Assembly (NCBI GenBank): GCA_049659625.1
Contig: JBASPX010000045.1
Coordinates: 96,317-160,316, forward strand
Direction of reading: 5' to 3'
Length of the DNA stretch: 64,000 nucleotides
Source of the DNA: Candidatus Saccharicenans sp.
GTDB lineage: Bacteria > Acidobacteriota > Aminicenantia > Aminicenantales > Saccharicenantaceae
How positions within the stretch are numbered: position 1 is the stretch's first letter; the number at the start of each line of letters is the position of its first letter. A model generated the notes under the pieces. That model had not been told where the DNA came from, searched no databases, and worked only from the letters and a program-made list of their open reading frames with translations. This document shows positions 13,632-63,970 of the stretch, piece after piece. The translations under genes were made by a program, and so were the position numbers.

Positions 13632-13644
13632 AAAAGGTTTCTGT

Positions 13645-14403: not shown

Positions 14404-14405
14404 CT

Positions 14406-15437
14406 TTAACTCCAGCTGTGGCGAGTTCTTTTAATCAGATAGAGAAAGAATGGAATGCCCACCAGGCTGGTGATTATTCCCGCGGGAAGCTCATACGGAG
14501 AAAAAACTCTGATCAGGTCATCAGCCAGAATCATCAGGCCTGCCCCGAAACCGGCAGAAAGCGGTATAACCAGCCTGTTATCTGCTCCGGCCATCCCTCT
14601 GACCGCATGGGGAACGATAAGACCAACCCAGCCGATTATTCCGGCCACAGAAACCACCGCAGAAGTAACCAGGGTGGCCAGACAGATGATCAGCATTCTC
14701 TCTCTTTTTACGGAGAGGCCGAGTGCCCGGGCCTCGTCTTCGTTCAGACTGAGGACGTTAACCCTCCAGCTCATTTTTATCATTAAAAACAATCCGGCGA
14801 TGACCAGAGGAGCTGACCAGAAAAGGTCATTCCAGGTGACCTGGGAGAAGCTCCCCAGCAACCAGAAAAAAAGCGCCTGCAGAGCGTAAGGGCTGGCCAC
14901 AAACTCCACGGCTGAAAGCAAAGCCTGAAAAAACGCCGAAACTACAATACCGGTCAGGAGTACCGAAAGGGTCGTATTCCTGGCGCCCTCAGCCAGCATC
15001 AGCACGAGAGAAACGGCCAGCAATCCGCATCCGAAAGCCAGAACCTGGGGCGGGAAAAGGCGGCCGAGGAGAACCAGAGAAACAGCCGCGCCGAAACCTG
15101 ACCCGAAAGAGACACCAAGAACGTATTCGTTAACCAGAGGATTTCTGAAGATTGACTGTAACGAAGCTCCGGAAACAGAGAAGGCCGCTCCGGCCAGAAG
15201 GGCTAAAAGCAACCTCGGCAGTCTGATATTCCAGACAATGTTGGTTATGTTTTCCGGAAGAACCTCCGGATTCGAACCGCTTATTTTAGAAATAAAAACT
15301 TTTAATACCTGGGCCGGCGTAACACTGACTGTTCCCAGACTCAGAGAAATCAGAAACAGGATCAAAGGGAAAAAAGCAGCCGCCAGATACAACCAGCATT
15401 TTTTTCTGTGGCTAATTCTGAAACCACTCATAAGCAT
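14406..15437 (-). CDS. FecCD/BtuC-family ABC permease.
   Basis: About 9 transmembrane segments with the FecCD conserved regions. It is 3 nt from the ATPase gene. Confidence 0.8.
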   Translation of the reverse strand: MLMSGFRISHRKKCWLYLAAAFFPLILFLISLSLGTVSVTPAQVLKVFISKISGSNPEVLPENITNIVWNIRLPRLLLALLAGAAFSVSGASLQSIFRNPLVNEYVLGVSFGSGFGAAVSLVLLGRLFPPQVLAFGCGLLAVSLVLMLAEGARNTTLSVLLTGIVVSAFFQALLSAVEFVASPYALQALFFWLLGSFSQVTWNDLFWSAPLVIAGLFLMIKMSWRVNVLSLNEDEARALGLSVKRERMLIICLATLVTSAVVSVAGIIGWVGLIVPHAVRGMAGADNRLVIPLSAGFGAGLMILADDLIRVFSPYELPAGIITSLVGIPFFLYLIKRTRHSWS

Positions 15438-16470
15438 CTATTTTAGCACACAGCTTCTCGAACAGGCCGGGACGACCATAGAAAAAATAAAAAATTCTTT
15501 CCCCCAGCATAATGATAGAATTTCTCTCAACCTGACCTTTCTGAAAAAGTTCCGCCAGATAATGGCTTTCCACCAGAACCAGCGCCGGGTCCCACCAGTA
15601 CCAGAAACCGAAGGTGTAATAAACTTTTCTCTCTCTTACGGCTTTTAAAGATTGAAGCCTGACATCTGAAAGAACGCTTCCCACGCTAACCTGCCTTTCT
15701 TCGGGTGGATAGTTTCCCTGCACCAGAATAATATCAGGATCCAGGCTGAGCAGAGTTTCCAGGTTCAGAACAACTGTGTCGGAACCCTGGTGAACCCTCT
15801 TGAATCGGCCGGCCAGGTTTATTCCACCGGCCAGGTCCACCGGCTCATAATTAAAAGGAGACCTTAAAATAGAACCCCAGAAACTGAGATAAACGCGCGG
15901 CTTATGTCCGCGAAAAGCGCTCTTCTGCCTGACCAGATTAATTTCCGCCTTCATGAATTGAACGATTTCCTTCCCGCGCTTCTGGCTTCCGGTTATGGCG
16001 GCTAAGATTTCAATCTCCTTCAGTAGACGTTCTATACTTCCTGTCGAGCTCAGGCTCACCACCGGACATTTCAATTTCCGCGTAAGCTGAGTTACAAGGT
16101 TAAGCTCTGAAGGAGAAACCAGCACCACGTCTGGTTCGAGCTGGATAATACGTTCGATGTTTACATCCTCGCCGGTTATCGACACCACCGGGATTTTTTC
16201 CACATCCGGGAATATGATTCGCATCAGGTGGTCATAGCGGGACGGAAACCTGTCAACGGCCACCACCCGGTGCTCACTGTTCAGGGCTGCCAGAATTCGC
16301 AGTAGTTCCGGCTGCAGACAGACAATCCTTTCCACCCTGTCCGGAATTTTCACCCGTCGTCCGAGATTGTCTTCAACCGTTATCTCACAGGCGCCGGCAG
16401 ACGAAGCCCGAAAAAGAGTAAACAACAACAGAAAACAGGATAAAATTTTGTCTATTTCTTTTTTCAGCAT
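15412..16470 (-). CDS. Periplasmic substrate-binding protein, class III (BtuF/FhuD-like).
   Basis: Signal peptide and an IVCLQPELLRILAAL-type N-lobe typical of cobalamin/siderophore-binding proteins. It is the first gene of the three-gene importer operon. Confidence 0.75.
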   Translation of the reverse strand: MLKKEIDKILSCFLLLFTLFRASSAGACEITVEDNLGRRVKIPDRVERIVCLQPELLRILAALNSEHRVVAVDRFPSRYDHLMRIIFPDVEKIPVVSITGEDVNIERIIQLEPDVVLVSPSELNLVTQLTRKLKCPVVSLSSTGSIERLLKEIEILAAITGSQKRGKEIVQFMKAEINLVRQKSAFRGHKPRVYLSFWGSILRSPFNYEPVDLAGGINLAGRFKRVHQGSDTVVLNLETLLSLDPDIILVQGNYPPEERQVSVGSVLSDVRLQSLKAVRERKVYYTFGFWYWWDPALVLVESHYLAELFQKGQVERNSIIMLGERIFYFFYGRPGLFEKLCAKIDAYEWFQN

Positions 16471-35794: not shown

Positions 35795-36550
35795 ATGGTC
35801 AGAATAAGAGAAATCCAGGCAAAGAGCGTCCTGAACAGGTCAAAAATATTTGATTACTGTCTGAATCCTTACACCGGCTGCAGCCATGCCTGCCGCTACT
35901 GCTACGCCGGGCTTTTTATCCGCCGGTATTCAGGTCATACCGAACCCTGGGGTGAATTTGTCGATATCAAAGTGAACGCTCCGGAACTCCTGCGCCGCCA
36001 GCTGCCGAGAGCGAAAAAAGGCACCGTCTGGATTTCTTCTGTTTGTGATCCTTATCAGCCGGTAGAAGTTCGCTATCAACTGACAAAAAAATGTCTTGAA
36101 ATCATCCGACAGTTTGATTTTTCGGTTTTCATCCAGACCAAGTCCGACCTGGTGGTCAGGGATGTTGAACTGCTTCAGGAAATAAAGGAAATTGAAGTCG
36201 GGTTTTCCATCGCCACCGACGACGACCGAACAGCGGCGCTTTTCGAACCCGGCGCGCCCTCAATCAGCCGGCGCCTGCTGGCTCTGGAGAAAATCAAACA
36301 CAAAAACATAAAGACATTTGCCTTCATCGGACCGCTGCTGCCCCAGAATCCCATCCGGCTGGTCAACCTTTTGCGCGGTCTGGTGGACAGAGTTTTTATC
36401 GACCGGCTGAATTACGCCGATCAGTTTATGAATTTTTACCGGAATCATAACCTGACCCGATATGCCAGCCCGGAATTTTTCCAGAAAACATCCGCTCTTC
36501 TGGTCGAGGAGCTGAAGAGAAACCAGCTTGATTACGAATTGCTCTTCTGA
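35795..36550 (+). CDS. Radical SAM protein of the SplB / DNA-repair-photolyase (COG1533) family.
   Basis: NPYTGCSHACRYCYA, which is a CxxxCxxC cluster in the family-typical context. About 250 aa. Confidence 0.7.
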   Translation: MVRIREIQAKSVLNRSKIFDYCLNPYTGCSHACRYCYAGLFIRRYSGHTEPWGEFVDIKVNAPELLRRQLPRAKKGTVWISSVCDPYQPVEVRYQLTKKCLEIIRQFDFSVFIQTKSDLVVRDVELLQEIKEIEVGFSIATDDDRTAALFEPGAPSISRRLLALEKIKHKNIKTFAFIGPLLPQNPIRLVNLLRGLVDRVFIDRLNYADQFMNFYRNHNLTRYASPEFFQKTSALLVEELKRNQLDYELLF

Positions 36551-36687: not shown

Positions 36688-37989
36688 ATGCTTTTCAGGA
36701 CACTGCTGATAGCAGCCATTATCATCGTATTTTACTCGCTGGCTAAATGGCGGAAACTCTCGGTGGAATTGAGCCTGCTGGCCGCTACCATCGGGGGAGC
36801 TCTGGCCGGTTCCATTTTCAGCTCGCCGCCGCCCGCAGAAATCCCGAGACATCTGGTTGAAGGCTCGTTTACCTATCTTGATGTCATCCTGGTTTTTTTT
36901 ACGGCCACCCTGTTCATAACGATCATCCAGAAATCTGGAGGAGTTGACTTTGCCGTCCGCCGCACCGTCGTTCGTTTTTATCGTTCCCGATTCCTGGCCC
37001 TGTTACTGCTGATGGTGATTGTTCTTATTCCCGGCGCTCTCACCGGAGCCGGCAGCGTTTCTCTACTGGTGGTGGGAGCTCCGGTGGCCCTGGCACTCAG
37101 AGGTCTCGGGGTTGAGGAAAAGAAAATCCCGGCGATTCTTTTTATTCTGGCCGGGCTGGCCGCCGCCGCTCCTCCGGTAAACATCTGGGCTATGATGCTG
37201 TGCGCCGGCACGGCCATTCCCTATGTCGGTTTTGAACTGCCGCTCGGGCTTCCGGTCATCATCCTCGGCATCCTGACTGTGGCAATCCTCGGAAGAAGGA
37301 AAGGCGCGGCGGAAATAGATTCTTTCCTGGAAAAGATAACCCCGCATCCGGGGATGAACTGGCTCCGGCTGCTCCTGCCGTTTCTGGTGTTCTTCGGTCT
37401 GGTTCTCGCCTACCGGCTATTTCCGTTCAACTTCCCTGTGCTCGGACTTCCTCTGGAATTCCTCACAGCTTCTCTTGTAGCTCTGGTTCTGAGTCCGGTC
37501 AGGTTGAACTTAATAAGGGTCGCTTCAGAGACCCTGCGCAAGTTGCTGCCGCTTCTGGCCATCATGGTGATAGTTGGCATGCTGCAGCAAATTCTTTCAG
37601 CCAGCGGGGTCAAGGGACTTATTTCTTATTCTGTTCTTATCATTCCGCTTGGACTTCTTTTCTGCCTGTTGCCCGTGATCATACCGGTTTCTGAAGGCGT
37701 TTTAACCTACGGCGGAGCGGCCATAATCGGCATTCCGCTCGTCTGGTATCTCAACTCTCTTGGCTACCACGCGACCGTGGTCATCTCCGGGCTCAGCCTT
37801 CTCTGGCCCCTCGGAGATGGGTTGCCTCCAACCGCTCTGATCGGAAGGTTGAGCGTGATGGTTTCAGGATATCAGGGTAAATACTGGCAGTTTCTTAAAG
37901 AAACCTGGATTCCCTGGTTGATAATCACGGCTACCGGTATGTTGATGATCATTTTCAGCGCAAAGCTTAAATTCCTGGTAACGGGATGA
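36688..37989 (+). CDS. Polytopic membrane permease (ion-transporter-superfamily / TRAP DctM-like fold). Substrate unknown.
   Basis: More than 10 predicted transmembrane helices and a Gly/Ala-rich composition. No catalytic motifs. Confidence 0.45.
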   Translation: MLFRTLLIAAIIIVFYSLAKWRKLSVELSLLAATIGGALAGSIFSSPPPAEIPRHLVEGSFTYLDVILVFFTATLFITIIQKSGGVDFAVRRTVVRFYRSRFLALLLLMVIVLIPGALTGAGSVSLLVVGAPVALALRGLGVEEKKIPAILFILAGLAAAAPPVNIWAMMLCAGTAIPYVGFELPLGLPVIILGILTVAILGRRKGAAEIDSFLEKITPHPGMNWLRLLLPFLVFFGLVLAYRLFPFNFPVLGLPLEFLTASLVALVLSPVRLNLIRVASETLRKLLPLLAIMVIVGMLQQILSASGVKGLISYSVLIIPLGLLFCLLPVIIPVSEGVLTYGGAAIIGIPLVWYLNSLGYHATVVISGLSLLWPLGDGLPPTALIGRLSVMVSGYQGKYWQFLKETWIPWLIITATGMLMIIFSAKLKFLVTG

Positions 37990-50949: not shown

Positions 50950-52248
50950 ATGTTCAGGAATCATCCGCGTTCCCTGGTGTACATCTTTCTCACCGAGATG
51001 TGGGAAAGGATCGGATTTTACACGCTGATGGCCATTCTGGTTCTTTACATGGACCAGGTTCTCGGCTGGAGCGATTCAAGCAAGGGTAACTGGTACGGTC
51101 TGTTCCTTGGTCTTTGCTACCTGTTTCCCCTGATTGGAGGCTGGCTCGGCGACCGGGTGTTAGGTCGTCTGAGAACTGTAAGAATCGGGGCGGTCCTGAT
51201 GGCTCTGGGTTACATCGGCCTGGCTCTTTCTTCAGTTTCACAGACGATAACCTTCAAGCTCGGACTCCTGCTGATAGCCATCGGGACAGGCATTTTCAAG
51301 GTTAACATGTCGGTGCTGGTGGGAAACATTTACCAGGATCGTCCCCAGCTCAAAGATGCCGGTTTTAACATTTTTTATATGGGAGTGAACCTGGGAGCGA
51401 TGCTGGCTCCCCTGATCGCCACCCTCAACAACGCGGTGTTTCACAGCTACCATCTGTCGTTCTGGGTTTCTGCTTTCGGACTGATTCTGGCTCTGACCAT
51501 ATTCCACTCCGGTAAAAGATATCTGGAACCGGCTGATGACCTGATTTCAAAAAAAACAGGTCTGAATAATCCCGAAGGTATCCAGACGAGCCATCCTGAC
51601 GAAAAGGAAGATACAGAAAATTTCCGTGAAAGAATAATCGCTCTGTCGATCCTTTTTTCCATCGTCATTCTCTTCTGGCTGGCTTTCTATCAGAATGGTT
51701 TCGCCCTGACCCTTTTCGCTGTCCGGTCCACCATGATCCTCAGCTGGCTGCGCCCGGAAACCTACCAGTTTTTCGAGCCGTTCTTCATTCTGGTGCTGAC
51801 TCCCCTGCTGCTCATGGTTTTCGCCAGATTGAGAGGTATCGGCAAAGAACCTTCCACACCGCGCAAAATCTTTTTCGGCATGATTTTCATGACTGGAGCC
51901 ATGCTGATCATGGTCGTGGCCTGCCTTCGTGGAGGCAATCAGGACGTTAACATCATGTCGCCGCTGTGGCTGATTTCCACTTATTTCGTGGTAACCATCG
52001 CCGAAATTCTGATCTCTCCGATGGGTCTTTCCTTTGTCTCCAAAGTGGCGCCGGCCAGAATCAGAGGTTTGATGATGGGCGGCTGGTACCTGGCAATTTC
52101 CCTCGGCAGCTACGGAAGCGGATTGCTCGGTAAACTCTACAGCCGTTTTCCCCACCATCAATTTTTCCTGATTCTGGCCGGGTTGCTGTCTCTGGCTGCC
52201 ATCCTGGTGCAGCTTTCGATGAAAAAGCTGGAAAAATATTCTCGCTGA
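50950..52248 (+). CDS. POT/PTR2-family proton-dependent oligopeptide transporter (MFS).
   Basis: ERIGFYTLMAILVLYM and GGWLGDRVLGRLRTVRIGAVLMALGY PTR2 signatures. Confidence 0.75.
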   Translation: MFRNHPRSLVYIFLTEMWERIGFYTLMAILVLYMDQVLGWSDSSKGNWYGLFLGLCYLFPLIGGWLGDRVLGRLRTVRIGAVLMALGYIGLALSSVSQTITFKLGLLLIAIGTGIFKVNMSVLVGNIYQDRPQLKDAGFNIFYMGVNLGAMLAPLIATLNNAVFHSYHLSFWVSAFGLILALTIFHSGKRYLEPADDLISKKTGLNNPEGIQTSHPDEKEDTENFRERIIALSILFSIVILFWLAFYQNGFALTLFAVRSTMILSWLRPETYQFFEPFFILVLTPLLLMVFARLRGIGKEPSTPRKIFFGMIFMTGAMLIMVVACLRGGNQDVNIMSPLWLISTYFVVTIAEILISPMGLSFVSKVAPARIRGLMMGGWYLAISLGSYGSGLLGKLYSRFPHHQFFLILAGLLSLAAILVQLSMKKLEKYSR

Positions 52249-52270: not shown

Positions 52271-53467
52271 ATGTTTGAAGAACACGTTCTGATTAAAGAA
52301 AAAACTTCTCAGGCGATAAAAATTCTGCAGGAACTCGACCTCGACTGCTGGATCACCTTCACCCGGGAAAGTGAAATCTGCGGCGACCCGGTGCTGGTGT
52401 TCCTGGCTCCCTCGCCCGTCACCTGGCATTCAGCCTTCATCATTACAGCAGACGGGCAGAAAAAAGCCATCGTCGGGCTTTACGATAAAAGATCCATAGA
52501 AGACACAGGTGCCTATGATTCTGTGGAAGGATACGTAACCGGGATAAAAGAACCTCTGCAGAAATTTTTAAGTTCGTTGAATCCCCGCCAGATCGCCATA
52601 AATTTTTCACGGACCAGCGAAATCTGCGACGGGCTGACCCATGGAATGTACCTGACGCTTTATGACTATCTTAAAGAAATCGGCCTGGAAAACAGACTGG
52701 TTTCAGCCGAGAGGTTAATCTCCGCCCTGAGAGAAAGAAAAACTCCGTATGAAATCCAGGCCATCAGAAAAGCGATAGAAGTCACCGAAGAAATTTTTCA
52801 CCTGGTGCAGAACTATATAGCTCCTGGCAGAACCGAAAAAGAGATAGCTGCTTTTATGTTGGAAGAAGTGAAAAAACGCGGTCTAAAAACCGCCTGGAGT
52901 CAGGCTACCTGTCCTGCGGTTTTTACCGGTCCGGACACCGCTCAGGCCCATTATGCCCCGACCGACAGGGTTGCCAGCCGGGGGCACATCCTGAACATGG
53001 ATTTTGGAGTCAAAGTGGAAAATTATTGTTCAGATATGCAGAGGACTTTTTACCTGCTGGAGGAAAACGAAACCTCAGCTCCATCGGAGGTGCGGAAAGG
53101 CTTCGAGACGATAGTGCGGGCAATCGAAGAAGCCAGAAAAGCCATGAAGCCCGGGGTGATCGGTCTGGAAATTGACAGAGTGGCCCGTGAAATCGTTACC
53201 TCTTCCGGCTATGACGAGTTCCCGCACGCTCTCGGCCATCAGGTTGGAAGATTCGCCCACGACGGAACAGCTCTTCTTGGCCCGGCCTGGGAGAAATATG
53301 CCGACAAACCGTTTCGTCCGCTCGAACCCGGGATGGTGTTTACGCTGGAACCCAGGCTAACCGTGCCCGGACGCGGCGTGGTGACCATCGAAGAGATGGT
53401 TCTGGTTACAGAAAAAGGAGCTGAATTTTTGAGCCACCCCCAGACCGAGCTGATTCTGATCGGTTAA
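52271..53467 (+). CDS. M24-family Xaa-Pro peptidase (prolidase / aminopeptidase P-like), cytoplasmic.
   Basis: HALGHQVGRFAHDG metal-binding region and the two-domain creatinase/prolidase layout. GGAGAAAGG RBS. Confidence 0.85.
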   Translation: MFEEHVLIKEKTSQAIKILQELDLDCWITFTRESEICGDPVLVFLAPSPVTWHSAFIITADGQKKAIVGLYDKRSIEDTGAYDSVEGYVTGIKEPLQKFLSSLNPRQIAINFSRTSEICDGLTHGMYLTLYDYLKEIGLENRLVSAERLISALRERKTPYEIQAIRKAIEVTEEIFHLVQNYIAPGRTEKEIAAFMLEEVKKRGLKTAWSQATCPAVFTGPDTAQAHYAPTDRVASRGHILNMDFGVKVENYCSDMQRTFYLLEENETSAPSEVRKGFETIVRAIEEARKAMKPGVIGLEIDRVAREIVTSSGYDEFPHALGHQVGRFAHDGTALLGPAWEKYADKPFRPLEPGMVFTLEPRLTVPGRGVVTIEEMVLVTEKGAEFLSHPQTELILIG

Positions 53468-53641: not shown

Positions 53642-54606
53642 TCAATCTTCCCCGAATGGTTCTTCCAGGGAAAGAGCTTCCATCCCGCCGAGTATTCTCG
53701 CTCCGTTCTCGGTGACCACCATGCAGTCCTCAATTCTGATACCAAATTCGCCCGGCAGGTATATTCCCGGCTCGTTGGAAAAGGTCATCCCTGGCTGGAT
53801 TTTTAACTTGTTTCCAGCAACCAGATAGGGATATTCGTGTCCCTCCAGACCGATCCCGTGTCCCAGCCGGTGGCTGAAGTATTTATAGCCGGGACCAAAA
53901 CCTGCCTCCTCGATCACTTTTCTGGCTGCCCGGTCCACTTCCTCACAGGCCACACCCGGCCGGCAGGCTCTGAGTGCAGCCAGCTGCGCCCGTTTGACCG
54001 TTTCCCATATTTTTTTCTGAAGGTCAGTGGCCCGGCCGAAAACCAGAGTTCTGGTGACGTCGGAATTATAGCCTTCAACCCGGCATCCGCCATCGACCAG
54101 AATTATGTCTCCGCTTTCAAGATTTTTTCTCTTCCTCGATCCATGGGGATAAGAGGAAGCCGGACCGAAGGAGGGACTGCCTGAGCCTGCGACTCCCAGA
54201 CGGGCATGAGCTTCTCTGATGTAACCGGCAAGTTCTTCCTGAGTCATTCCTTCTTTGATTCTTCTGAAAGCTTCTCTGTAGGCCAGCTTGGTTATTCTGT
54301 TAGCCGCCTCCAGGCAGGTTATCTCTTTTTCCGTTTTCAGCCCGCGGCAGCCATCGGTAACAGCACTTCCGTCAACCAGCTCAAAATCGCCCGCGTCTTT
54401 TCTAAGCCCGTAGAAAATGAAACTTCTGGTCGACGGCTCCAGAGCTATTCTTTTAACGCGCGCATAATCACGGCCAGCAGTTTTGTTAACTTAGAGTCCT
54501 CTATTCCGGGTTTAACAGACCGGGTGCCGGCCAGAGCTGAAGCCAGTTTTCCGGCTGACAGGAGTATCAGGCTCCCGGCTTTTATAAAATCTCTTCTTCC
54601 GGCCAT
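53642..54606 (-). pseudogene. Decayed second M24 peptidase gene. A Tat-signal N-terminus lies in one frame and the remainder in another, with most of the N-terminal domain missing.
   Basis: The Tat ORF MAGRRDFIKAGSLILLSAG..MRALKE* occupies 54445-54606. The frame open from 54490 reads ..RIALEPSTRSFIFYGL..FELVDGSAVTDGCRGLKTEKEI.., which is the end of the M24 N-domain, then MTQEEL... through HRLGHGIGLEGHE in the catalytic domain. About 80 residues of the N-domain are absent. Confidence 0.5.
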
Positions 54607-54817: not shown

Positions 54818-56455
54818 TCAAAAACCGCGTGAGTATTTTGCCCAGAAAAGCGCATAGAGCTCACGGTATTTCTGCATGGCCGCCCTGGCAAAATCTCCTG
54901 TGTACAGAGTGAGATACTGGTTTATGGTCAAAGGCTCGGCCTCGGGTTTTTTGCTGGCGGCTATTTCCAGAACTTTCTTCTCGACCATGGGCAGCTCGGC
55001 GAAAGCTTTCTCTTCAAAATATTTTACCGTATCTTCGATGATCTTCCGGTTTTCGCCCCAGCGCAGAATGGCCAGCCGGTTAGTCCGCCGGAACATCCAG
55101 GCTGCTGAATCCTCCCGGTAACCATGCTGACCGCAGACTTCAAACTCCGGCGGCAGCCCGGTCACGCCGGCAAAGATCGGAATTCTCGGGCTGAGGGCGG
55201 GATTGTCAAAAGCAAACCAGCAAACAGCGCCAACAGCCGGCGGCAGCCAGCTTCTGAGTTGAATGACTGTGGCGTAAGCGCAGGCGTTGATGGCGATCGT
55301 TCGCTGCGGGGTGATCGTCCCAGGTTTCAGCGTGTTGATCAGGGTAATCCAGTCCCTGGACATCCAGTTGCTGACCACCGGGCTTTTTTCCATCTCCTCG
55401 GAATTTCTCTTCTTGACCAGCAGGTTCCCGGTCATGTCGTACGGGGTGCCCTCGTATGTCTCACGGTACAGGCGAAGCACATCCCTCACAGAAAGCTTCT
55501 TCTCAGGCTTGACGGAAAAGGGAAGCTCCTCGGCGTTCATATCAAGCTTGAGGGAGGGAGCCAGCTGGCTGAAAACATAATATTCCCTGATGCTAAAAGG
55601 TTTCCGTCCGCTGTAGGCTTTCCAGAACTTAAAGGGTTCTCCTTTCTTCGGATCCCACCAGCCCATTTCCTCGGCCACCCGGAATACGTTGTCTGAAGCC
55701 AGGTAATGGTCGGGATCCTTCAAATTCAACTCTCCGATGCGCGGATTGTTGGCGGAAATACCAACATGGTCGTCAGGAATGCGCACGGCAGCCCAGACCG
55801 CGCCCTTTTCGAGCGGGCCGGCTCCGAAAATTTCAAAGTGCCAGACCTCGCGACTGTCAGCAATGGTCAGACATTCGCCGTAATCTCCATAACCGTATTC
55901 CTTCACCAGCTCTCCGGCCAGCTTGATGGCTTCCCTCGCGGTGCGGCATCTTTCCAGCATCACCCGCTCGAGCTCCTCTATCATAAACATGCCCTCGGGG
56001 TTGTAGAGCTCTTCCCTTCCGCCTATGGTGGTCTCACCTATAGCCAGACCGAATTCATTCATCGCAGGATAGGCGGTGTTCAGAAAAGCATAAGTCTCTG
56101 GAACCTCAGGTATTTCTCCTTTGAGAATCATACCCCTGATATCCCTGGGGTTTTCTGTGTGCATTCTGCCTTCGTACAGTTTATTGGTTTCTCCCTGCTT
56201 GTGCTGACGGCGCGGCACAATATTAACCCACTGCCGGTAATTGCCGTCGCAGGTATGGCAGGTGATGACCGAGCCATCAACCGTGGCCAGGCGCCCGACC
56301 ATGATGCTGGTACACCCCCAGCCTTCGTCCGTAAACTGCTCTTCATAAGAAGAGGTCTGAACTCCCGGCAGAGTCAAACCCAGCAGGACAAGGGCAGTAA
56401 AAAGAATGCTCAGGAGAAAATACCTTCGTCTGGATGATCCGGACATCACAAACAC
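54818..56455 (-). CDS. Secreted C69-family dipeptidase, paralogue 3 (more divergent).
   Basis: Signal peptide followed by GWGCTSIMVGRLATVDGSVITCH. Confidence 0.85.
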   Translation of the reverse strand: MFVMSGSSRRRYFLLSILFTALVLLGLTLPGVQTSSYEEQFTDEGWGCTSIMVGRLATVDGSVITCHTCDGNYRQWVNIVPRRQHKQGETNKLYEGRMHTENPRDIRGMILKGEIPEVPETYAFLNTAYPAMNEFGLAIGETTIGGREELYNPEGMFMIEELERVMLERCRTAREAIKLAGELVKEYGYGDYGECLTIADSREVWHFEIFGAGPLEKGAVWAAVRIPDDHVGISANNPRIGELNLKDPDHYLASDNVFRVAEEMGWWDPKKGEPFKFWKAYSGRKPFSIREYYVFSQLAPSLKLDMNAEELPFSVKPEKKLSVRDVLRLYRETYEGTPYDMTGNLLVKKRNSEEMEKSPVVSNWMSRDWITLINTLKPGTITPQRTIAINACAYATVIQLRSWLPPAVGAVCWFAFDNPALSPRIPIFAGVTGLPPEFEVCGQHGYREDSAAWMFRRTNRLAILRWGENRKIIEDTVKYFEEKAFAELPMVEKKVLEIAASKKPEAEPLTINQYLTLYTGDFARAAMQKYRELYALFWAKYSRGF

Positions 56456-56562
56456 TCCTTAAAATAAAAATTCCGGCTCTATTATCTTTTTTGCCACGGA
56501 GCAAGTCAAACTTATAGTCTCCATTGAGTTTATTATTAAAATGATTCAGGATAAAATTATGG

Positions 56563-57282
56563 TTGAAAGCCGAGGCCATGAGAATCAGTTTCAGCCAGCC
56601 AGTTTTCCTTCCCTGGGGAGGATTTTTTGGACGTTTGTTGCATTCGGACCTGATGATATTGCTTGACGGAACTCAATTTGCCCGCGGCTTCACCTTTGTC
56701 AACCGCAATCGACTGAAGGGACCGCAGGGAGAAATCTGGGTAACCGTGCCTGTAAAGAAAAAAGGGCTGGGTCTTCAGAAAATAAGTCAGCTGAAAATAC
56801 ATCAGCCGGATCGCTGGAGCGAAAAATTTCTGGGTCTGCTCAAACATTACTACCGGCATTCTCTCTTTTTTCACCTCACCGAAGAAGCTTTAAGAGAAAT
56901 TATCTGCCGCGCCGGAGACGATTTTTGCCGGCTGGCAGTTTCCAGCCTGAAATTCATGGCTCAGGCTTTCAGCATAAATCGTGAATTCATACTCCAATCT
57001 GAAACGCAGGTTGAAGGGAAAGGAAGCTCACTTCTGGTCTCTCTGGCCGTAAAGACCGGCGCCAGTGAGGTAATACTGCCGTACCTGGCCGACCGCCATC
57101 TTCAGATGAACCTTTTCCACGAAGCTGGTATAAAAGTGATTTTTCTGAAATACCTTCAGGAACCCTACCCTCAATTCTGGGGAAATTTCATCGGGAACCT
57201 TTCGGCCCTGGACCTCTGGCTTTGCTGCGGACCGCAGGGCTCGAGGAAAATCGCTAAGAGTTCCCGGCTGATCGATTCCTGA
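56563..57282 (+). CDS. WbqC-like family protein.
   Basis: N-terminal MRISFSQPVFLPWGGFF matches the WbqC signature M-x-x-x-I-x-Q-P-x-Y-L-P-W-x-G-Y-F. The real start may be the second ATG at 56578. Confidence 0.55.
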   Translation: MKAEAMRISFSQPVFLPWGGFFGRLLHSDLMILLDGTQFARGFTFVNRNRLKGPQGEIWVTVPVKKKGLGLQKISQLKIHQPDRWSEKFLGLLKHYYRHSLFFHLTEEALREIICRAGDDFCRLAVSSLKFMAQAFSINREFILQSETQVEGKGSSLLVSLAVKTGASEVILPYLADRHLQMNLFHEAGIKVIFLKYLQEPYPQFWGNFIGNLSALDLWLCCGPQGSRKIAKSSRLIDS

Positions 57283-57289
57283 GTTCCGG

Positions 57290-59860
57290 TCATTGAGGGA
57301 TAAGTTCAGAAGACTTCCGTCCGTCAGAAAACACCAGATATTCTCTGGTGAGAGCGTAAACCGCATTCTGCCAGCCCAGGAGATTGTCCACCACTTCCTG
57401 CACCCTGACCGGTTTTTCAGGATGAAAATCTATGAACAGCCACAGTTTATTCCCGTCATGGTTGATTTCCGCCCTGACCTTTTCCTGGTACAGATGGCTC
57501 AGCCGTTCCAGCGATTCAGGTGCCAGTCTTTTTTGCAGCTCTTCCGGAGAAGGAGCCTCAGGGTCGCTCAGGTCGAGTGAATAAACCATTTCAATTATGT
57601 CCTGAATTAAAGGCCGGCAACTGCTGGAACAACTCATCAGCCCACGGAATCTGAGCCCTTCCGGAAGGCAGGTATTAATTTCCCTCAGAAAATCATCCGG
57701 TTCGATAATTTCCAGAGCCCGGAACTCCATAGCCTCGGCTTTCGCCTGCATCCCGAGAGGTAGCGCGGGTCCATGAGTGATCAGCATTTTAGGGTGAAAC
57801 CCCCGGGAAAAAGCCATTTTCACCCCGGCCCGGCGCAGGCCCCTCTCAAGCTGATTCAGAAGGTCATTGTGAGAGATAAATCTGGCCGGACCTGTCTTTT
57901 CGTATATCGCCCGGTATCGGACCGGAACATCAACTTCCCGGGCTTTGTGGCCGGAATTAAGAAAAATAGCGGAAATATTTTTGATGTCTGACAGTGCAGC
58001 CTTGACTTCAGGCCTGTCGCAGGCAAGACAGCGAGCGCAATCCCGCTCCGGACATCCTTCGGTATACCTTGCCTCCAGAGCAGCTCTGAGCTCTTCCTTC
58101 AAGTAATTTTTTTTAAGACCGACGTTGACCACATCCCACGGGAGTTCGGCTTCGGGGCTGATCGAGCGGAGATAAATTTTATAATCTATCCCGGAAAGCT
58201 CAAAGGCTTTAAGCCACAGGTTAAAATCAAACTGATCGAGCCAGCCGTCAAAACGCGCTCCCAGACGGTAAGCTTCGAGAAGCGCTGCTCCCAGCCTCCG
58301 ATCGCCGCGGGAAAAAACCGCTTCCAGGATCGAAGCTTTGATCCGGTGTTCTTTGAGCTCCACCTTCTTCCAGCGGTCGATGTTGCTCTTGATGTATTCC
58401 TGTTTTTTCTGAAGCCTGTCTTCATCTTCCATCGGCAACCACTGGAAGGGAGTATGGGGTTTCGGAATGAAAGGAGATACGCTGAGGTTTATCCCCGGGG
58501 TGGCTTTAATTATTTTTCTTCCAAGTTCGATAAGCTGCTGGATTAAATTAATTATGGCTTTAAGGTCTTCGGCCGTCTCGGTTGGCAGGCCGATCATGAA
58601 ATATAATTTTAAAAGCCTCCAGCCATTCTCAAAGGCATACCGCGCTGCCCTTAAAAGTTCTTCGTCAGTTATTTTTTTGTTAATGACTCTTCTGAGCCTT
58701 TCGGTTCCCGCTTCGGGTACCAGGGTGAATCCCGTTTTCCTCACCCTGACTATTTCCTCCACCACCTTTCTCGAAAGTCCGCCAGGACGCAGCGAGGGCA
58801 GAGAAATAGATATTTTTTCTTCTTCCAGCACCGGCATCAGAGTTTCTATCGTCTGCTCAAGAAACGGGTAATCGCCGACTGAAAGGGCATTCAGCGAAAC
58901 ATCGTCGTAGCCTGTATCCTTCAATCCCTGCCAGATAACATCTACTGCCTGAGCCGCAGGACGGAGACGGTACGGGAAATACAGAACGGTTGCCTGACAG
59001 AAACGACAGTTCTGCGGGCAACCCCTGGCCACTTCCACCTGGAGGCGGTCAAAGACGCTCTGGATGTTCGGCACGACGAACTTATCCGGCACCTGAGCTT
59101 TTTCCAGCGGAAAGACCACTCTTTTTTCAATCCTTTCCGGAAAACCGGGCTGTGGTTTTGGAACAAGAAGATAGCTTCCCGGAACAGCAGCCGGCCGGTA
59201 AAAAGCCGGGAGGTAAATCCCTTTAATGTCAGAAAAACTTCTGATCAATTCTTCGCGGCTGCCAGCGCTGTCTCTGGCTTCCAGGTATCTATCTACAATC
59301 TCCAGAATCAATTCTTCGCCATCGCCAAAGGCAAAGATATCGATGAAATCAGCCAGAGGTTCTGGATTCAGCGCGGCCGGACCGCCGGCAATTATCAGCG
59401 GGTCGTGCCGTTGCCTTTCACGGCTGAGCAGCGGAATCCCTCCCAGCTCTAAGATGTTAAGCAAATTGGTGTGATTCAGCTCGTATAGAAGCGAAAAACC
59501 GACCAGGTCAAATTGATCGAGCGGAATTTTATTTTCCAGAGTAAACAGCAGAATTTTTGAGCGGCGTAACTCAGCTTCAAGGTCAGGCCAGGGCGCGTAG
59601 ACCCTTTCTGCCAGAACGTCAGGTCTGCGGTTGAGAATACTGTAAAGAATCCTCTGGCCGAGATAGGAAAGTCCTATTTCATAAACTTCAGGAAAAGCCA
59701 GGGCTATCCTGACCTTTGCCTCATTCGGGTTTTTTTTGATCTGGTTCCATTCACCCCCGATGTAGCGACCGGGCTTCTGCACCCGCCTCAGTAAAATTTC
59801 CAGAGTCTTTTCATCCACCGGTTGTATTTTTCTCAACGGTCTCATGGAAATCTCCGCCAT
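57290..59860 (-). CDS. Fused B12-binding-domain radical SAM protein (TIGR03960-like) and DUF2344 (TIGR03936-like), the rodA-associated radical SAM pair.
   Basis: N-terminal VQKPGRYIGGEWN, radical SAM cluster CPQNCRFCQ, and a C-terminal ARFISHNDLLNQLERGLRRAGVKMAFSRGFHPK segment typical of DUF2344. It lies directly downstream of rodA on the same strand. Confidence 0.7.
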   Translation of the reverse strand: MAEISMRPLRKIQPVDEKTLEILLRRVQKPGRYIGGEWNQIKKNPNEAKVRIALAFPEVYEIGLSYLGQRILYSILNRRPDVLAERVYAPWPDLEAELRRSKILLFTLENKIPLDQFDLVGFSLLYELNHTNLLNILELGGIPLLSRERQRHDPLIIAGGPAALNPEPLADFIDIFAFGDGEELILEIVDRYLEARDSAGSREELIRSFSDIKGIYLPAFYRPAAVPGSYLLVPKPQPGFPERIEKRVVFPLEKAQVPDKFVVPNIQSVFDRLQVEVARGCPQNCRFCQATVLYFPYRLRPAAQAVDVIWQGLKDTGYDDVSLNALSVGDYPFLEQTIETLMPVLEEEKISISLPSLRPGGLSRKVVEEIVRVRKTGFTLVPEAGTERLRRVINKKITDEELLRAARYAFENGWRLLKLYFMIGLPTETAEDLKAIINLIQQLIELGRKIIKATPGINLSVSPFIPKPHTPFQWLPMEDEDRLQKKQEYIKSNIDRWKKVELKEHRIKASILEAVFSRGDRRLGAALLEAYRLGARFDGWLDQFDFNLWLKAFELSGIDYKIYLRSISPEAELPWDVVNVGLKKNYLKEELRAALEARYTEGCPERDCARCLACDRPEVKAALSDIKNISAIFLNSGHKAREVDVPVRYRAIYEKTGPARFISHNDLLNQLERGLRRAGVKMAFSRGFHPKMLITHGPALPLGMQAKAEAMEFRALEIIEPDDFLREINTCLPEGLRFRGLMSCSSSCRPLIQDIIEMVYSLDLSDPEAPSPEELQKRLAPESLERLSHLYQEKVRAEINHDGNKLWLFIDFHPEKPVRVQEVVDNLLGWQNAVYALTREYLVFSDGRKSSELIPQ

Positions 59861-60952
59861 TCAGATAAAGGCAAAACGCCGCATCCTGACGTTCAGAACC
59901 AGACTCAGAGCCAGAAAGTTCGCCAGCAGGCTCGAGCCGCCGTAACTCAAAAACGGCACGGGAATTCCGGTTATCGGGAAAAGTCCCACTAACATCATCA
60001 CATTTATCAAGAACTGACAGCCAATCATCATCCCGACAAGAAAGGCCAGATAAACTCCGGCCCGGTCGGGGGAAATCCAGGCAGTTGAGAATATCCGGTA
60101 CATCAGCAAGGCGTAAAGGATGAAAACGGCCACCACTCCCAGAAATCCGATTTCCTCAGCTATAACTGCCATAATAAAATCCGTATGCCGGGCAGGAAGA
60201 AAACGCAACTGGCTCTGGGTACCTTTGTGATATCCCTTACCGGTAAGTCCGCCTGAACCGATGGCAATCTTTGACTGTCGCAGCTGATACCCGGCTCCCC
60301 GCGGGTCCTGGTCGGGTGTCATCAGGGTTTCTATTCTTTTTTTCTGATACTCTTTAAGGGCAAAATTCCAGCCAGCAAAACCAGAAAGGAGCAGGCCGAT
60401 CAGCAGAATGGCCACATATTTCTTTCTTATTCCGGCCAGAATATAAACTCCAAGTAATACTGGCATAAAAGTCAGAGCAGTTCCCAGGTCCGGTTGCAAA
60501 GCGGTGAGGATAGCCGGCACACCGACCACCAGTGAACTCAGAGCAAAAGTTTTGAAACTCATTTTATCCTCACGATAGCCGGAAAAAATCCTGGCCAGGA
60601 CCAGAATGACCACCACTTTCATCAGTTCAGAGGGCTGCCCCTGAAAAGGACCGATGACGATCCAGCTTCTGGTGTTGGCCACTTTCTTTCCGAACAAAAG
60701 CAAGCCCAGCAGTATGATGTTAAGAAACACGTAAAGGGGAAAGGAAATCGTCAGCAGGAATTTATAATCGATGAGTATGGCCACCATGGTGATAATAAGG
60801 CTTATTATCAACCAGATGATCTGTCGCCAGATATAATGGGAAGCCTGAAAATATATCGCGCTGTATAGAAAAACTATGCCGATAACCGAGATAATCACTG
60901 CCAGCAGGATGGTCAGTGAGTCAATTTCCCTGAATATTCGCCTGTCTAACAT
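59861..60952 (-). CDS. rodA: SEDS-family peptidoglycan glycosyltransferase RodA.
   Basis: FtsW/RodA/SpoVE topology and motifs, within the mreCD-mrdA context. Confidence 0.8.
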   Translation of the reverse strand: MLDRRIFREIDSLTILLAVIISVIGIVFLYSAIYFQASHYIWRQIIWLIISLIITMVAILIDYKFLLTISFPLYVFLNIILLGLLLFGKKVANTRSWIVIGPFQGQPSELMKVVVILVLARIFSGYREDKMSFKTFALSSLVVGVPAILTALQPDLGTALTFMPVLLGVYILAGIRKKYVAILLIGLLLSGFAGWNFALKEYQKKRIETLMTPDQDPRGAGYQLRQSKIAIGSGGLTGKGYHKGTQSQLRFLPARHTDFIMAVIAEEIGFLGVVAVFILYALLMYRIFSTAWISPDRAGVYLAFLVGMMIGCQFLINVMMLVGLFPITGIPVPFLSYGGSSLLANFLALSLVLNVRMRRFAFI

Positions 60953-62726
60953 ACTTTTCCCTGTAAGCCCTGAACAATTCCCCGGCTATCGGCGCTGCTG
61001 TCTGGCCGCCCATACCGCCGAATTCAACCAGGACGGCCACCACAATCTCCGGGTTATGCCTGGGAGCAAAACCGATAAACCAGGAATGAGTTTTGCCCGG
61101 CTCCATTCCTTTTCTGGCCAGCCTTTCGGCTGTCTCCCGACTGATGATCTGTGTGGACCCAGTTTTGCCGCAGACTTCAAAGCCGGGCTGATAGGCCCCT
61201 TTTCCCGTCCCCCCATCATTCACCGACCGCCACATACCCTCGATCACTTTTTCAAAAACGCTTTCAGGAATGTCCACCTTCTCCTCGAACCACACCTCCA
61301 TTTCGCCTTTTACCAGATGAGGCCTTATCCTGACTCCCTTCCTGGCAATAACCGCCGCCAGGCAGGCCATCTGCAGAGGGGTGACCAGCATCGGGCCCTG
61401 TCCGATGGCCACCGATATAGTCTCGCCTGGAAACCAGGGCTGGCCGAGAATCCTTCTTTTCCAGTCAGAACTCGGCACCAGACCCTCTTTTTCCCCCGGA
61501 AGGTCGACATCGGTCTTCTGACCCAGTCCCATTTTCCTGGCATAGGCGGCGATGGTATCGATCGACAGTCTGCGTCCCAGCTGATAAAAATATACATTGC
61601 AGGAATTCTTGATGGCTTCAGGCAGATTCTGGCTTCCATGCCCCGGTTTGAACCAGCAGCTGAATTCCTTGTTGAAAAGTTCGATTGAACCGCTGCAGAA
61701 AAAGGTGGTATTTTCGGTGACTATTTCTTCTGACAGCGCAGCTATGGCCATAACAGGCTTGAAAGTGGAACCCGGTGAATAAAGCCCACGGAGAACTCTA
61801 TTTTCCAGCGGCTTCCCCGGATCGTTGATCAGGTTGAGCCATTCATCCGCAGAAAAACGCGAAATAAAACGATTCGGGTCGTAGGAAGGAGAACTGGCCC
61901 AGACCAGGCACTCGCCGTTGCGAGGATCAAGAGCAACTATCGCTCCTTCCCTGCCTTCAAGAAGTTGCTCCGCCTTTTTCTGAAGGTCAAAGTCAATCGT
62001 CAATTCCAGGTTTTTGCCGGGCCTGGGGTCGATACGGCTGACTTCCTGCCTGGGACGACCCAGGCTGTCCACTATTTCCTGGATTTTCCCGTCAATTCCA
62101 GAAAGGTAATCGTTGTACTGCTTTTCCACTCCAGCCTTTCCCACCATTTCACCTGCTCGCCACCTTTTTTCCGGCTGGGTTTTGAGGTCATCGACCGAAA
62201 CTTCCTGAAGATAGCCGAGAACATGCGCAGCCGTCGACCCAAACGAATAATATCTTCTGGGTTCAACTTCCAGTTTTATCTCCGGAAATTCATCTTTTCT
62301 GGCTTCGATTATCGACACCTCTTCCAGCCGGAGATTGTCCATGATGACCACCGGCTCATAAGCGGGAAAGACTCTGTATCGCTCGATGCGTTTTTTCAGT
62401 TCTTCTTTCTTCAGATTCAGCAAAGGCTCAAGTCTGTCAATCGTTTTTTCATAATCTTTAACCGCTTCCCTCAACAGGAAGACCTTAAAACTCGGAATGT
62501 TGTCAGCGAGAATAACTTTCTGCCTGTCCAGGATAAGGCCCCTGGGAGCGGTTATTGGTATTTCTCTCAGGCGATTGGCTTCCGCCATCTTCCAGTATTT
62601 TTGATGGTCCAGGACCTGAATTTTCCAGTAAGCTACTGTTACCAGCAAAAGGAGTGCGGCCAGAAAATAAACGGTGACCCTGGCTCTTTTTATTACTGTA
62701 GAAAGATCTTCGTAAATTCTGGCCAT
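60921..62726 (-). CDS. mrdA: Penicillin-binding protein 2 (elongasome D,D-transpeptidase).
   Basis: N-terminal transmembrane segment plus SxxK (STFKPV), SxN (SCN) and KTG (KTGST) motifs. Confidence 0.85.
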   Translation of the reverse strand: MARIYEDLSTVIKRARVTVYFLAALLLLVTVAYWKIQVLDHQKYWKMAEANRLREIPITAPRGLILDRQKVILADNIPSFKVFLLREAVKDYEKTIDRLEPLLNLKKEELKKRIERYRVFPAYEPVVIMDNLRLEEVSIIEARKDEFPEIKLEVEPRRYYSFGSTAAHVLGYLQEVSVDDLKTQPEKRWRAGEMVGKAGVEKQYNDYLSGIDGKIQEIVDSLGRPRQEVSRIDPRPGKNLELTIDFDLQKKAEQLLEGREGAIVALDPRNGECLVWASSPSYDPNRFISRFSADEWLNLINDPGKPLENRVLRGLYSPGSTFKPVMAIAALSEEIVTENTTFFCSGSIELFNKEFSCWFKPGHGSQNLPEAIKNSCNVYFYQLGRRLSIDTIAAYARKMGLGQKTDVDLPGEKEGLVPSSDWKRRILGQPWFPGETISVAIGQGPMLVTPLQMACLAAVIARKGVRIRPHLVKGEMEVWFEEKVDIPESVFEKVIEGMWRSVNDGGTGKGAYQPGFEVCGKTGSTQIISRETAERLARKGMEPGKTHSWFIGFAPRHNPEIVVAVLVEFGGMGGQTAAPIAGELFRAYREKYVRQANIQGN

Positions 62727-62734
62727 CGACTATC

Positions 62735-63214
62735 TCAGACGCCCAGGTTCAACTTTTTGAAAAGTTTTATAAAAATTGAAGATAGAAGAGCAGTAAATCC
62801 GGCCTGCAAATAAACAGCCGGCCCTGTATACAGAAGTGCTTTTCCGAAAATAAGAGCGTAAAAAAAAGCCCAGATTATAAGCTGTATGAGGCTTACAGCA
62901 AGGGTCATAACAAAACACCGGTAAAAAGTTCCGACATCAATCCGGCGGCTGATCCAGCCGGCCAGAAACCCGGAGATGGTCAGGCTGAGTCCTCCAATGC
63001 CGAAAACGCTGTGGGATAGAGCATCCTGGATCAATCCGGCTGCTGTACCGACAACTGCCCCCTCCACCTCTCCATAGATGATGGCGATAAACACAACGGC
63101 GACAGCAAAAGCGTTGACCATGAGCACGAGTGAAGGATGCAGGGAACTCAGAAGCGCATGGAGTCCGGCAGCTGCTGTCAGTGCCAGAAATATCACAAAG
63201 CCCTTGCGAACCAT
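62735..63214 (-). CDS. mreD: Rod shape-determining protein MreD.
   Basis: A 159-aa polytopic membrane protein between mreC and mrdA. Confidence 0.65.
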   Translation of the reverse strand: MVRKGFVIFLALTAAAGLHALLSSLHPSLVLMVNAFAVAVVFIAIIYGEVEGAVVGTAAGLIQDALSHSVFGIGGLSLTISGFLAGWISRRIDVGTFYRCFVMTLAVSLIQLIIWAFFYALIFGKALLYTGPAVYLQAGFTALLSSIFIKLFKKLNLGV

Positions 63215-63217
63215 TGG

Positions 63218-63970
63218 CTACCTCAAGATTGAAGGCGCCTCTTTAATCACCGCCACCAGTTCCAGATCCTTCAGGCTGAAGTATGGTTTAACAGTTATTT
63301 TCTTAAAAACCCCTTCTCCGGAGGCCACTCTGATTATTCTTCCGACCCTGAGCCCTGGAGGAAAAACTTTATCAAACCCGGAGGTCTGAACTTCATCCCC
63401 TTCCTTTCCTCCCGGCGAACTCAACATTATATATTTTATCAGGCAATTTCCCTGTCCATCCCCCGAGAGAACGCCCGGCCAGCGTTCTTCAGAAAACACC
63501 ACGCCAACTCCACTTTCCTCTGAGGTCACCAGCAGAACCCGGGCTTCGTGCAGAGCCACCGGTTCAGCCGTCCGGCCGACGAGATTCCCGAATCGATCGC
63601 AGACCGGAAGATTTTTGACTATGCCGTCAGCGCTTCCCTTATTTATAATTACCGACCGGTAATAATTTGCCGTGTCAAAGGAGATTACCCTTGCCGGGAT
63701 AATATCCAGGCCAAGCATCCTCAGATTATTCTCGAGCTCGGACTGGCTTATATAGAGCCTCAATTTTTCCTGGAGAAGCCGGTTCTCCTGAGTGAGAAAA
63801 AAAACCTGCTTTTCAAGCTCAATGTTCTTTCTCGCCGCCTGCCGGAGATACTTAAGATTATTCCAGCTGGAAGAGACCAGGTTGATCAGACTGTTGACTC
63901 CCCTTATTATCGGTGTCGTCACCTGGAAAAAAATCTTCTCCAGAAAAGTCGTTTTGCTTCCTAGCGGCAC
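63218..63970 (-). CDS. mreC: Rod shape-determining protein MreC. The start may lie beyond the first in-window ATG.
   Basis: N-terminal coiled coil plus a C-terminal beta-domain pattern (GSADGIVKNLPV..GRIIRV). It sits 3 nt upstream of mreD. Confidence 0.75.
   Translation of the reverse strand: MPLGSKTTFLEKIFFQVTTPIIRGVNSLINLVSSSWNNLKYLRQAARKNIELEKQVFFLTQENRLLQEKLRLYISQSELENNLRMLGLDIIPARVISFDTANYYRSVIINKGSADGIVKNLPVCDRFGNLVGRTAEPVALHEARVLLVTSEESGVGVVFSEERWPGVLSGDGQGNCLIKYIMLSSPGGKEGDEVQTSGFDKVFPPGLRVGRIIRVASGEGVFKKITVKPYFSLKDLELVAVIKEAPSILR

Follow-up and report, generated by a model that had tools for sequence, protein, structure and literature searches.

Five genes lie closely packed on the minus strand, between 57290 and 63970, of the stretch of DNA analyzed here, a 64,000-nucleotide (nt) piece of contig JBASPX010000045.1 (positions 96,317 to 160,316) from the Candidatus Saccharicenans sp. 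assembly GCA_049659625.1. We refer to this whole stretch as the window. The genes are mreC, mreD, mrdA, rodA, and an 856-amino-acid (aa) open reading frame (ORF) that encodes a radical S-adenosylmethionine (SAM) protein fused to a DUF2344 domain. This last gene, called the radical SAM gene below, is the subject of our analysis. The five genes and the junction that joins the last two are as follows.

63218 to 63970, minus strand: mreC, the first operon gene visible in the window (PF04085, 110 bits)
62735 to 63214, minus strand: mreD (PF04093, 35 bits; TIGR03426, 40.4 bits)
60921 to 62726, minus strand: mrdA, encoding PBP2 (TIGR03423, 651 bits; Pfam PBP_dimer and Transpeptidase)
59861 to 60952, minus strand: rodA (TIGR02210, 367.4 bits; cut-off, 336.7)
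57290 to 59860, minus strand: fused TIGR03960 radical SAM/TIGR03936 (DUF2344) gene, 856-aa ORF (NCBIfam and Pfam matches)
59858 to 59863, minus strand: TGAATG, in which the rodA TGA abuts the first ATG of the radical SAM ORF (read directly from the sequence)

The mreC product scored 90 bits against TIGR00219, slightly short of the 92.75 cut-off. We found 3 bp between mreC and mreD, 8 bp between mreD and mrdA, a 32-bp overlap of mrdA and rodA, and no bases between rodA and the radical SAM gene. An earlier reading of this DNA (the original prediction) had placed the ORF directly 3′ of rodA on the same strand, and the TGAATG junction confirms this. The prediction had allowed that a terminator or promoter might separate the two genes. 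By consensus scan, we found neither a promoter-like nor a terminator-like site at the junction and no minus-strand promoter-like site inside rodA; a hairpin about 180 nt ahead of the rodA stop codon is weak and unconvincing. By strand and spacing, the radical SAM gene belongs with the elongasome operon, since it lies on the rodA strand and sits too close to rodA for a promoter or terminator to fit between them. Because the two genes have no intergenic DNA and no promoter or terminator consensus at their junction, the radical SAM gene is very likely cotranscribed with rodA. The ORF contains a second ATG at 59845, five codons in. Because GGAG lies 6 nt upstream of it and a start there matches the length of P0001, a 96% identical homologue of 851 aa, we think that this ATG is probably the true start, giving a protein of 851 aa.

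The original prediction had also described the ORF as a TIGR03960 protein fused to DUF2344, and a domain search bore this out, with scores above both curated cut-offs. TIGR03960 matched residues 23 to 612 on profile positions 3 to 596 of 605 (660.5 bits; cut-off, 462.3; E, 2.3e-198), and TIGR03936 matched residues 648 to 779 (117 bits; cut-off, 71.9). The Pfam profile for DUF2344, PF10105, scored 103.2 bits (cut-off, 23.8), and Pfam also gave PF19864 (194 bits) and PF04055 (69 bits). The nearest homologues are named Candidatus Saccharicenans or Aminicenantes (Acidobacteriota), and NCBI labels the 96% identical protein, from a metagenome-assembled genome, a "TIGR03960 family B12-binding radical SAM protein."

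For comparison, we used 80 loci from many phyla, with one genome per species, which were the best of about 600 matches to the window query and not a random sample of the family. The radical SAM and DUF2344 parts are fused in 72 of the 80, with the same three-domain layout as in the window protein; the two parts are separate genes in Firmicutes. The 72 fused loci, together with a structural model in which the parts pack as one body, rule out the fusion as an assembly or frameshift artifact. The DUF2344 profile matched 10,086 clusters at 50% identity (E up to 0.001). We checked ten mid-length or long matches from a representative search, and each was either a fragment cut at the N terminus or a longer, full-length copy of the fused protein; none of the ten had DUF2344 fused to other domains. 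The window gene is an ordinary, already annotated member of a catalogued, functionally unstudied family. Nothing essential distinguishes its product from the TIGR03960 and TIGR03936/DUF2344 families, whose cut-offs it passes and whose layout it shares. It departs from the family norm in the second half of its DUF2344 domain, which is diverged and acidic, and in having rodA rather than an RNase E/G gene as its neighbor.

Within the radical SAM gene, we distinguished the following parts.

59207 to 59659, minus strand: N-terminal Rossmann-type, B12-binding-like domain (Radical_SAM_N2), residues 68 to 218
58541 to 59035, minus strand: radical SAM core, residues 276 to 440 (PF04055, 69 bits)
58997 to 59020, minus strand: CX3CX2C motif within the radical SAM core, residues 281 to 288
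58019 to 58054, minus strand: Cx4Cx2Cx2C motif at the end of the radical SAM part, residues 603 to 614
57293 to 57937, minus strand: DUF2344 domain, residues 642 to 856, with a TruA-type pseudouridine synthase fold and no catalytic Asp

A full-length AlphaFold model had a predicted local distance difference test (pLDDT) score of 90.3 and a predicted template modeling (pTM) score of 0.90; because of this pTM, we take the three parts to pack as one body. The structures closest to the full-length model were TokK, MgmA, AprD4, TsrM, RimO, and MiaB. The three cysteines of the radical SAM core motif (C281, C285, and C288) are present in 80/80 loci. The second motif, C603-x4-C608-x2-C611-x2-C614, was found in 120/120 close homologues. 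Across the loci, Cys 603, 608, and 611 are kept in 78/80 and Cys 614 is kept in 72/80, and the split Firmicute genes carry the motif at the end of the radical SAM protein. We regard these four cysteines as a candidate auxiliary Fe-S or zinc site.

In its front two-thirds, the protein places a Rossmann-type domain ahead of a radical SAM barrel, a layout seen both in methylthiotransferases and in cobalamin-type radical SAM enzymes. On the protein, the Pfam B12-binding profile scored 19.8, which is below its threshold of 32.1. By eye, we read conserved S-x-L and G-G motifs at positions typical of B12-binding domains. AprD4 is free of cobalamin, and the Rossmann-plus-barrel fold is therefore no proof of cobalamin use. 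The protein may use cobalamin. No conserved Cys precedes residue 276 across the homologue alignments, and we saw no obvious signal peptide or membrane-spanning segment in the N-terminal sequence by eye, with no predictor run.

The window protein shares with the class B radical SAM enzymes (TokK, TsrM, MgmA, CysS, OxsB, and the cobalamin-free AprD4) a Rossmann domain ahead of the barrel. It differs from them in having the extra Cys4 site and a TruA-like domain and in its subthreshold B12-binding score. Its general plan is that of MiaB, RimO, and MtaB, in which the radical SAM core stands between an N-terminal domain of flavodoxin- or Rossmann-like type and a C-terminal domain that recognizes nucleic acid. 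In contrast to these enzymes, it has neither the Cys triad nor a TRAM match and carries the TruA-like domain instead, and its TIGR01579 score is 25.8 versus a cut-off of 357.

The DUF2344 profiles aligned to the window protein in part, over positions 1 to 129 of 209 for TIGR03936 and 1 to 128 of 176 for Pfam. An AlphaFold model of residues 591 to 856 had a mean pLDDT of 86.6, with values above 90 from residue 642 on, and in this model the chain is confidently folded to the C terminus. Two homologues (L063 and P0158) match the complete Pfam DUF2344 profile. The profile matches end near position 129, probably because the second half of the domain has diverged in this lineage rather than been lost. 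The DUF2344 model aligned to TruA over 179 to 191 residues. Independently, when we searched with the model in Foldseek, all 20 matches at E up to 2e-4 were TruA, Pus1, or Pus3. Consistently with this, Pfam already places DUF2344 in its pseudouridine synthase clan (PMC7955657). We found no Pfam PseudoU_synth_1 match in the radical SAM protein at E up to 0.001, and a PDB sequence search with the DUF2344 profile gave nothing significant (best E, 0.17, to an unrelated protein). No truA gene was found among the fetched loci.

We then compared DUF2344 with TruA residue by residue, using E. coli TruA as the sole hhalign reference. The two aligned collinearly over 196 columns, which is the entire domain, at a probability of 0.4 to 1.5%, and a shift of the register by a few residues is possible. 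The alignment pairs TruA G62 with the universal Gly703, N88..LP92 with N729..LP733, and Y120 with the conserved Tyr760. Thus, three features of the TruA/Pus1/Pus3 enzymes appear to be kept: the catalytic-loop glycine, the N..LP motif, and a cleft tyrosine. In contrast, the catalytic Asp60 of TruA falls on Pro701 and Arg58 falls on Ala699. Across the 80 loci, column 701 is Pro in 52, Ser in 13, and Ala in 6 and is never Asp. An Asp lies three positions before this column in 20 loci, and the window protein is not among them. A nine-residue, family-specific insert with a conserved S-x-GFHPK precedes the former active-site loop. The missing Asp, the change of Arg58 to Ala, this insert, the lack of a PseudoU_synth_1 match, and the fusion to or pairing with a radical SAM enzyme all separate DUF2344 from the TruA, Pus1, and Pus3 proteins. 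Our assignment is that the domain has a TruA fold and is not a pseudouridine synthase, and we hold the exact register tentatively.

Most homologues have a basic DUF2344 domain, with a median isoelectric point (pI) of 9.2 and a pI above 8 in 56/72. Its conserved Arg and Lys residues are R673, R677, K655, and K/R839. Domain charge was also tried as a way of dividing the rodA-linked from the RNase-linked homologues and was rejected, as we found no consistent difference.

We clustered the ORFs flanking the 80 loci without prior labels and then named the clusters by Pfam. Sixty-six loci were informative downstream, with at least 2 kb of downstream sequence, and 67 were informative for rodA, which we counted when it was on the same strand and no more than 500 bp upstream. 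The commonest neighbor was an RNase E/G gene; in 40/66 loci, it shares the strand of the radical SAM gene and lies no more than 1 kb downstream, with a median gap of 17 bp. These loci come from Thermodesulfobacteriota, Geobacteraceae, Nitrospirae, Firmicutes, and Armatimonadota. Beyond the RNase E/G gene lie rnpA-yidC-jag-trmE in Thermodesulfobacteriota and the genes for L21, Prp, L27, and Obg (rplU-rpmA-obg) in Firmicutes, Geobacteraceae, and Armatimonadota, and RsmB adjoins in Geobacteraceae and Ignavibacteria. In two Peptococcaceae loci, the order is an M23 peptidase gene, radical SAM, DUF2344, RNase E/G, L21, and Obg, and one of them (L068) has Prp and L27 between L21 and Obg. A further observation comes from the Peptococcaceae locus L080, where the RNase E/G gene past the split DUF2344 gene (12561 to 14228) encodes a C-terminal TRAM domain (PF01938, 30 bits). 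TRAM is an RNA-binding domain typical of MiaB/RimO-type radical SAM enzymes.

By the same counting, rodA lies upstream in only 10/67 loci: the window, seven genomes of the Aminicenantes type, one Blastocatellia genome, and one Nitrospirae genome. The statement in the original prediction that these families are repeatedly found next to rodA therefore holds for a minority of loci and fails for the family as a whole, where the RNase E/G gene is the usual companion. Outside Acidobacteriota, the upstream neighbors are highly variable and include genes for ferritin, serpin, H+-PPase, and HtrA. We found no RNase E/G gene within 10 kb of the radical SAM locus in the eight loci L001 to L008. The Blastocatellia locus joins both kinds of neighbor, with mreB-mreC-mreD-PBP2-rodA-radical SAM-RNase E/G in an unbroken row. 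In E. coli, mreBCD adjoins rng, and in B. subtilis, it adjoins spoIVF-rplU-rpmA-obg; the TIGR03960/DUF2344 family is not known from E. coli. We conclude that this is an old neighborhood in which cell shape genes border RNA and ribosome genes and that the radical SAM gene sits at the border. Separately, in L004 to L008, all from Aminicenantes, an acyl coenzyme A (acyl-CoA) dehydrogenase gene lies 3′ of the radical SAM gene on the same strand after a gap of 9 to 98 bp, and the mre-rodA-radical SAM operon thus seems to extend to a metabolic gene with no relation to it.

Because of the TruA fold, the conserved Arg and Lys residues, the basic DUF2344 domain of most homologues, and the RNase E/G and ribosomal context, we favor, at a probability of roughly one-half, the reading that the gene encodes an uncharacterized, RNA-directed radical SAM enzyme in which the TruA-like domain would recognize and present the substrate. 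Several points weigh against this. The window's own DUF2344 domain is acidic (pI 5.9 overall and 5.1 in the second half), which fits RNA binding less well. No RNase E/G gene was found in the 64-kb window by tblastn. The residue pairing with TruA has low statistical support, and the loci behind our counts were chosen as best matches. The searchable literature gave us no functional or experimental study of TIGR03960, TIGR03936, or DUF2344 proteins, and the proposed substrate is drawn from fold and neighbors only; the radical SAM protein named in a C. difficile essential-gene paper is a different one. Finally, the rodA-radical SAM junction (−31 to +40 bp) is kept across Aminicenantes, including deep ones that are 48 to 70% identical, and this could mean that, in that group, the gene is truly tied in function to the elongasome.

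If such a tie extended to function in the wall, the enzyme would be an accessory of the MreBCD-PBP2-RodA machine, and the target of its radical chemistry, of unknown kind, would be a lipid carrier, a precursor of peptidoglycan, or a protein of the elongasome. The position of the gene as the final cistron of mreC-mreD-mrdA-rodA with zero intergenic bases, the absence of a promoter or terminator consensus at the rodA junction, and the recurrence of that junction in eight Aminicenantes-type genomes that are 48 to 96% identical, in Blastocatellia, and in one Nitrospirae genome speak for this reading. We nevertheless consider it unlikely. Upstream rodA (10/67) is far rarer than downstream RNase E/G (40/66), the C-terminal domain has the fold of an RNA enzyme, and inspection by eye, with no predictor run, showed no obvious signal peptide or membrane segment. 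Membership of the operon also appears loose, as an acyl-CoA dehydrogenase gene follows in other Aminicenantes, and mre genes adjoin rng in E. coli as well, where no family member is known. The cell wall chemistry put forward in the original prediction is thus unsupported, given the TruA fold, the RNase E/G partner elsewhere, and the lack of an obvious signal or membrane segment.

The presence of L21, Prp, L27, and Obg among the conserved neighbors would also suit a protein-modifying enzyme like RimO or MgmA whose target is RNase E/G itself or a ribosomal protein. In that case, the TruA-like domain would not present the substrate but dock onto a ribonucleoprotein or rRNA. We consider this unlikely, because scores for the specific families are far under their cut-offs (for TIGR01579, 25.8 versus 357) and the N-terminal domain is without a conserved Cys triad. 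Similarly unlikely is that the TruA-like domain has been reused for a non-RNA ligand or as a structural lid in a small-metabolite enzyme whose neighborhoods are historical accidents. The lost catalytic Asp, the S-x-GFHPK insert in the former active-site loop, the acidic domain of the window protein, and the variable upstream neighbors outside Acidobacteriota are consistent with such a role. However, in several phyla the gene is tightly paired with RNase E/G (median gap, 17 bp), for which chance is a poor explanation, and R673, R677, K655, and K/R839, together with the basic pI of most homologues, fit nucleic acid binding.

According to the RNA-directed model, the protein would be cytoplasmic and would consist of a cobalamin-binding-like Rossmann domain, a radical SAM barrel with the Cys4 site, and the TruA-fold C-terminal domain. 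The last of these would be a substrate recognition module that binds structured RNA (tRNA or rRNA) and offers a single nucleotide to the active site of the radical SAM part. That site would carry out a radical modification, possibly a methylation if cobalamin is bound. The place of the gene behind rodA would be a relic of a neighborhood with the order mreBCD-mrdA-rodA ... [radical SAM-DUF2344]-RNase E/G-rplU-rpmA-obg. The RNase E/G end would have been lost or moved in Aminicenantes, leaving the radical SAM gene as the final cistron of the elongasome operon, where it would be coexpressed with growth genes and would not have to act on the wall. A bolder and more tentative proposal is that these proteins form a new RNA-modifying class, in which a dead TruA-type domain grips a tRNA or rRNA and flips the nucleotide and the enzyme works with RNase E/G in RNA maturation to make a modification that has no assigned enzyme. 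If this is true, the recurrent placement of the gene between the cell shape genes and rng-rplU-rpmA-obg would suggest that envelope growth and ribosome biogenesis are linked.

The TruA fold without its Asp and the RNase E/G and ribosomal context turn a guess about the cell wall into a testable question about RNA modification. This lead was drawn from the family at large and owes nothing to any peculiarity of the window. It also suggests that adjacency to rodA is a poor guide to function here, as the mre/rodA and rng/rplU clusters are old neighbors and the gene lies at their border.

Beyond the 3′ end of the radical SAM gene, the window contains the following features.

56563 to 57282, plus strand: WbqC-like gene (PF08889, 173.7 bits; cut-off, 21.3)
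56491 to 56518, plus strand: promoter-like site, TTGCCA-16-TATAGT, at 10/12 consensus positions (a consensus match only), in a 107-bp divergent intergenic region

The PF08889 match covers residues 12 to 227 of the WbqC-like protein on profile positions 1 to 216 of 218, and the likely start of the gene is the ATG at 56578. A PDB sequence search with the protein found nothing, and the literature searched gave no functional study of WbqC. The original prediction was right about the identity of this gene and wrong about its divergent placement: it is convergent with the radical SAM gene, with 7 bp between the stop codons. Its divergent partner is a C69 peptidase gene on the opposite side, across the 107-bp intergenic region. 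Only the window and its three closest relatives (L001 to L003) have a WbqC-like gene in this position. Because it lies on the opposite strand and is kept only in these three nearest relatives, it adds nothing to the elongasome link. From its strand and arrangement, we read it as an unrelated neighbor in a separate transcription unit, outside the operon. Near the convergent stops, a 7-bp palindromic hairpin (CACCAGAGAATATCTGGTG) at 57332 to 57350 is followed by a T run on the minus strand; it sits in the last ~20 codons of the radical SAM ORF, before the stop, and 50 nt past the WbqC stop. This hairpin may be a weak terminator for the radical SAM gene, the WbqC-like gene, or both, or it may be chance. 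We did not accept it as a terminator, as it is weak (7 pairs) and lies within the 3′ end of the radical SAM ORF.

Elsewhere in the window, the minus strand from 13645 to 16470 encodes a FecCD family permease, an ABC ATPase, and a Peripla_BP_2 protein, which form a BtuCDF/Fec-type importer for cobalamin or an iron chelate. This importer could be relevant if the radical SAM enzyme uses cobalamin. At Rfam gathering thresholds, the window gave no match, the cobalamin riboswitch included, and it has no tRNA genes. Pfam gave nothing at E up to 0.001 for two long ORFs, at 1765 to 3369 (minus strand, 534 aa) and 36688 to 37989 (plus strand, 433 aa). A second radical SAM protein of 251 aa is encoded at 35795 to 36550 on the plus strand (PF04055, 48 bits, with a weak DUF5131 match) and is unrelated to the TIGR03960 gene.

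Three C69 family dipeptidase paralogues lie within 17 kb, at 39414 to 41111 (plus strand), 41120 to 42886 (plus strand), and 54818 to 56455 (minus strand). A POT family peptide transporter and a full-length M24 peptidase are encoded at 50950 to 52248 and 52271 to 53467, both on the plus strand. Together, the C69, POT, and M24 genes make up a peptide uptake and degradation neighborhood beside the cell shape operon. At 53642 to 54606 on the minus strand, we also found a 201-aa ORF with only the C-terminal catalytic half of an M24 (Xaa-Pro-type) peptidase. On that strand, some 200 bp upstream of it, is a 53-aa ORF that opens with a twin-arginine-like signal (MAGRRDFIKAG...). These pieces look like one M24 gene broken by frameshifts or a sequencing error.

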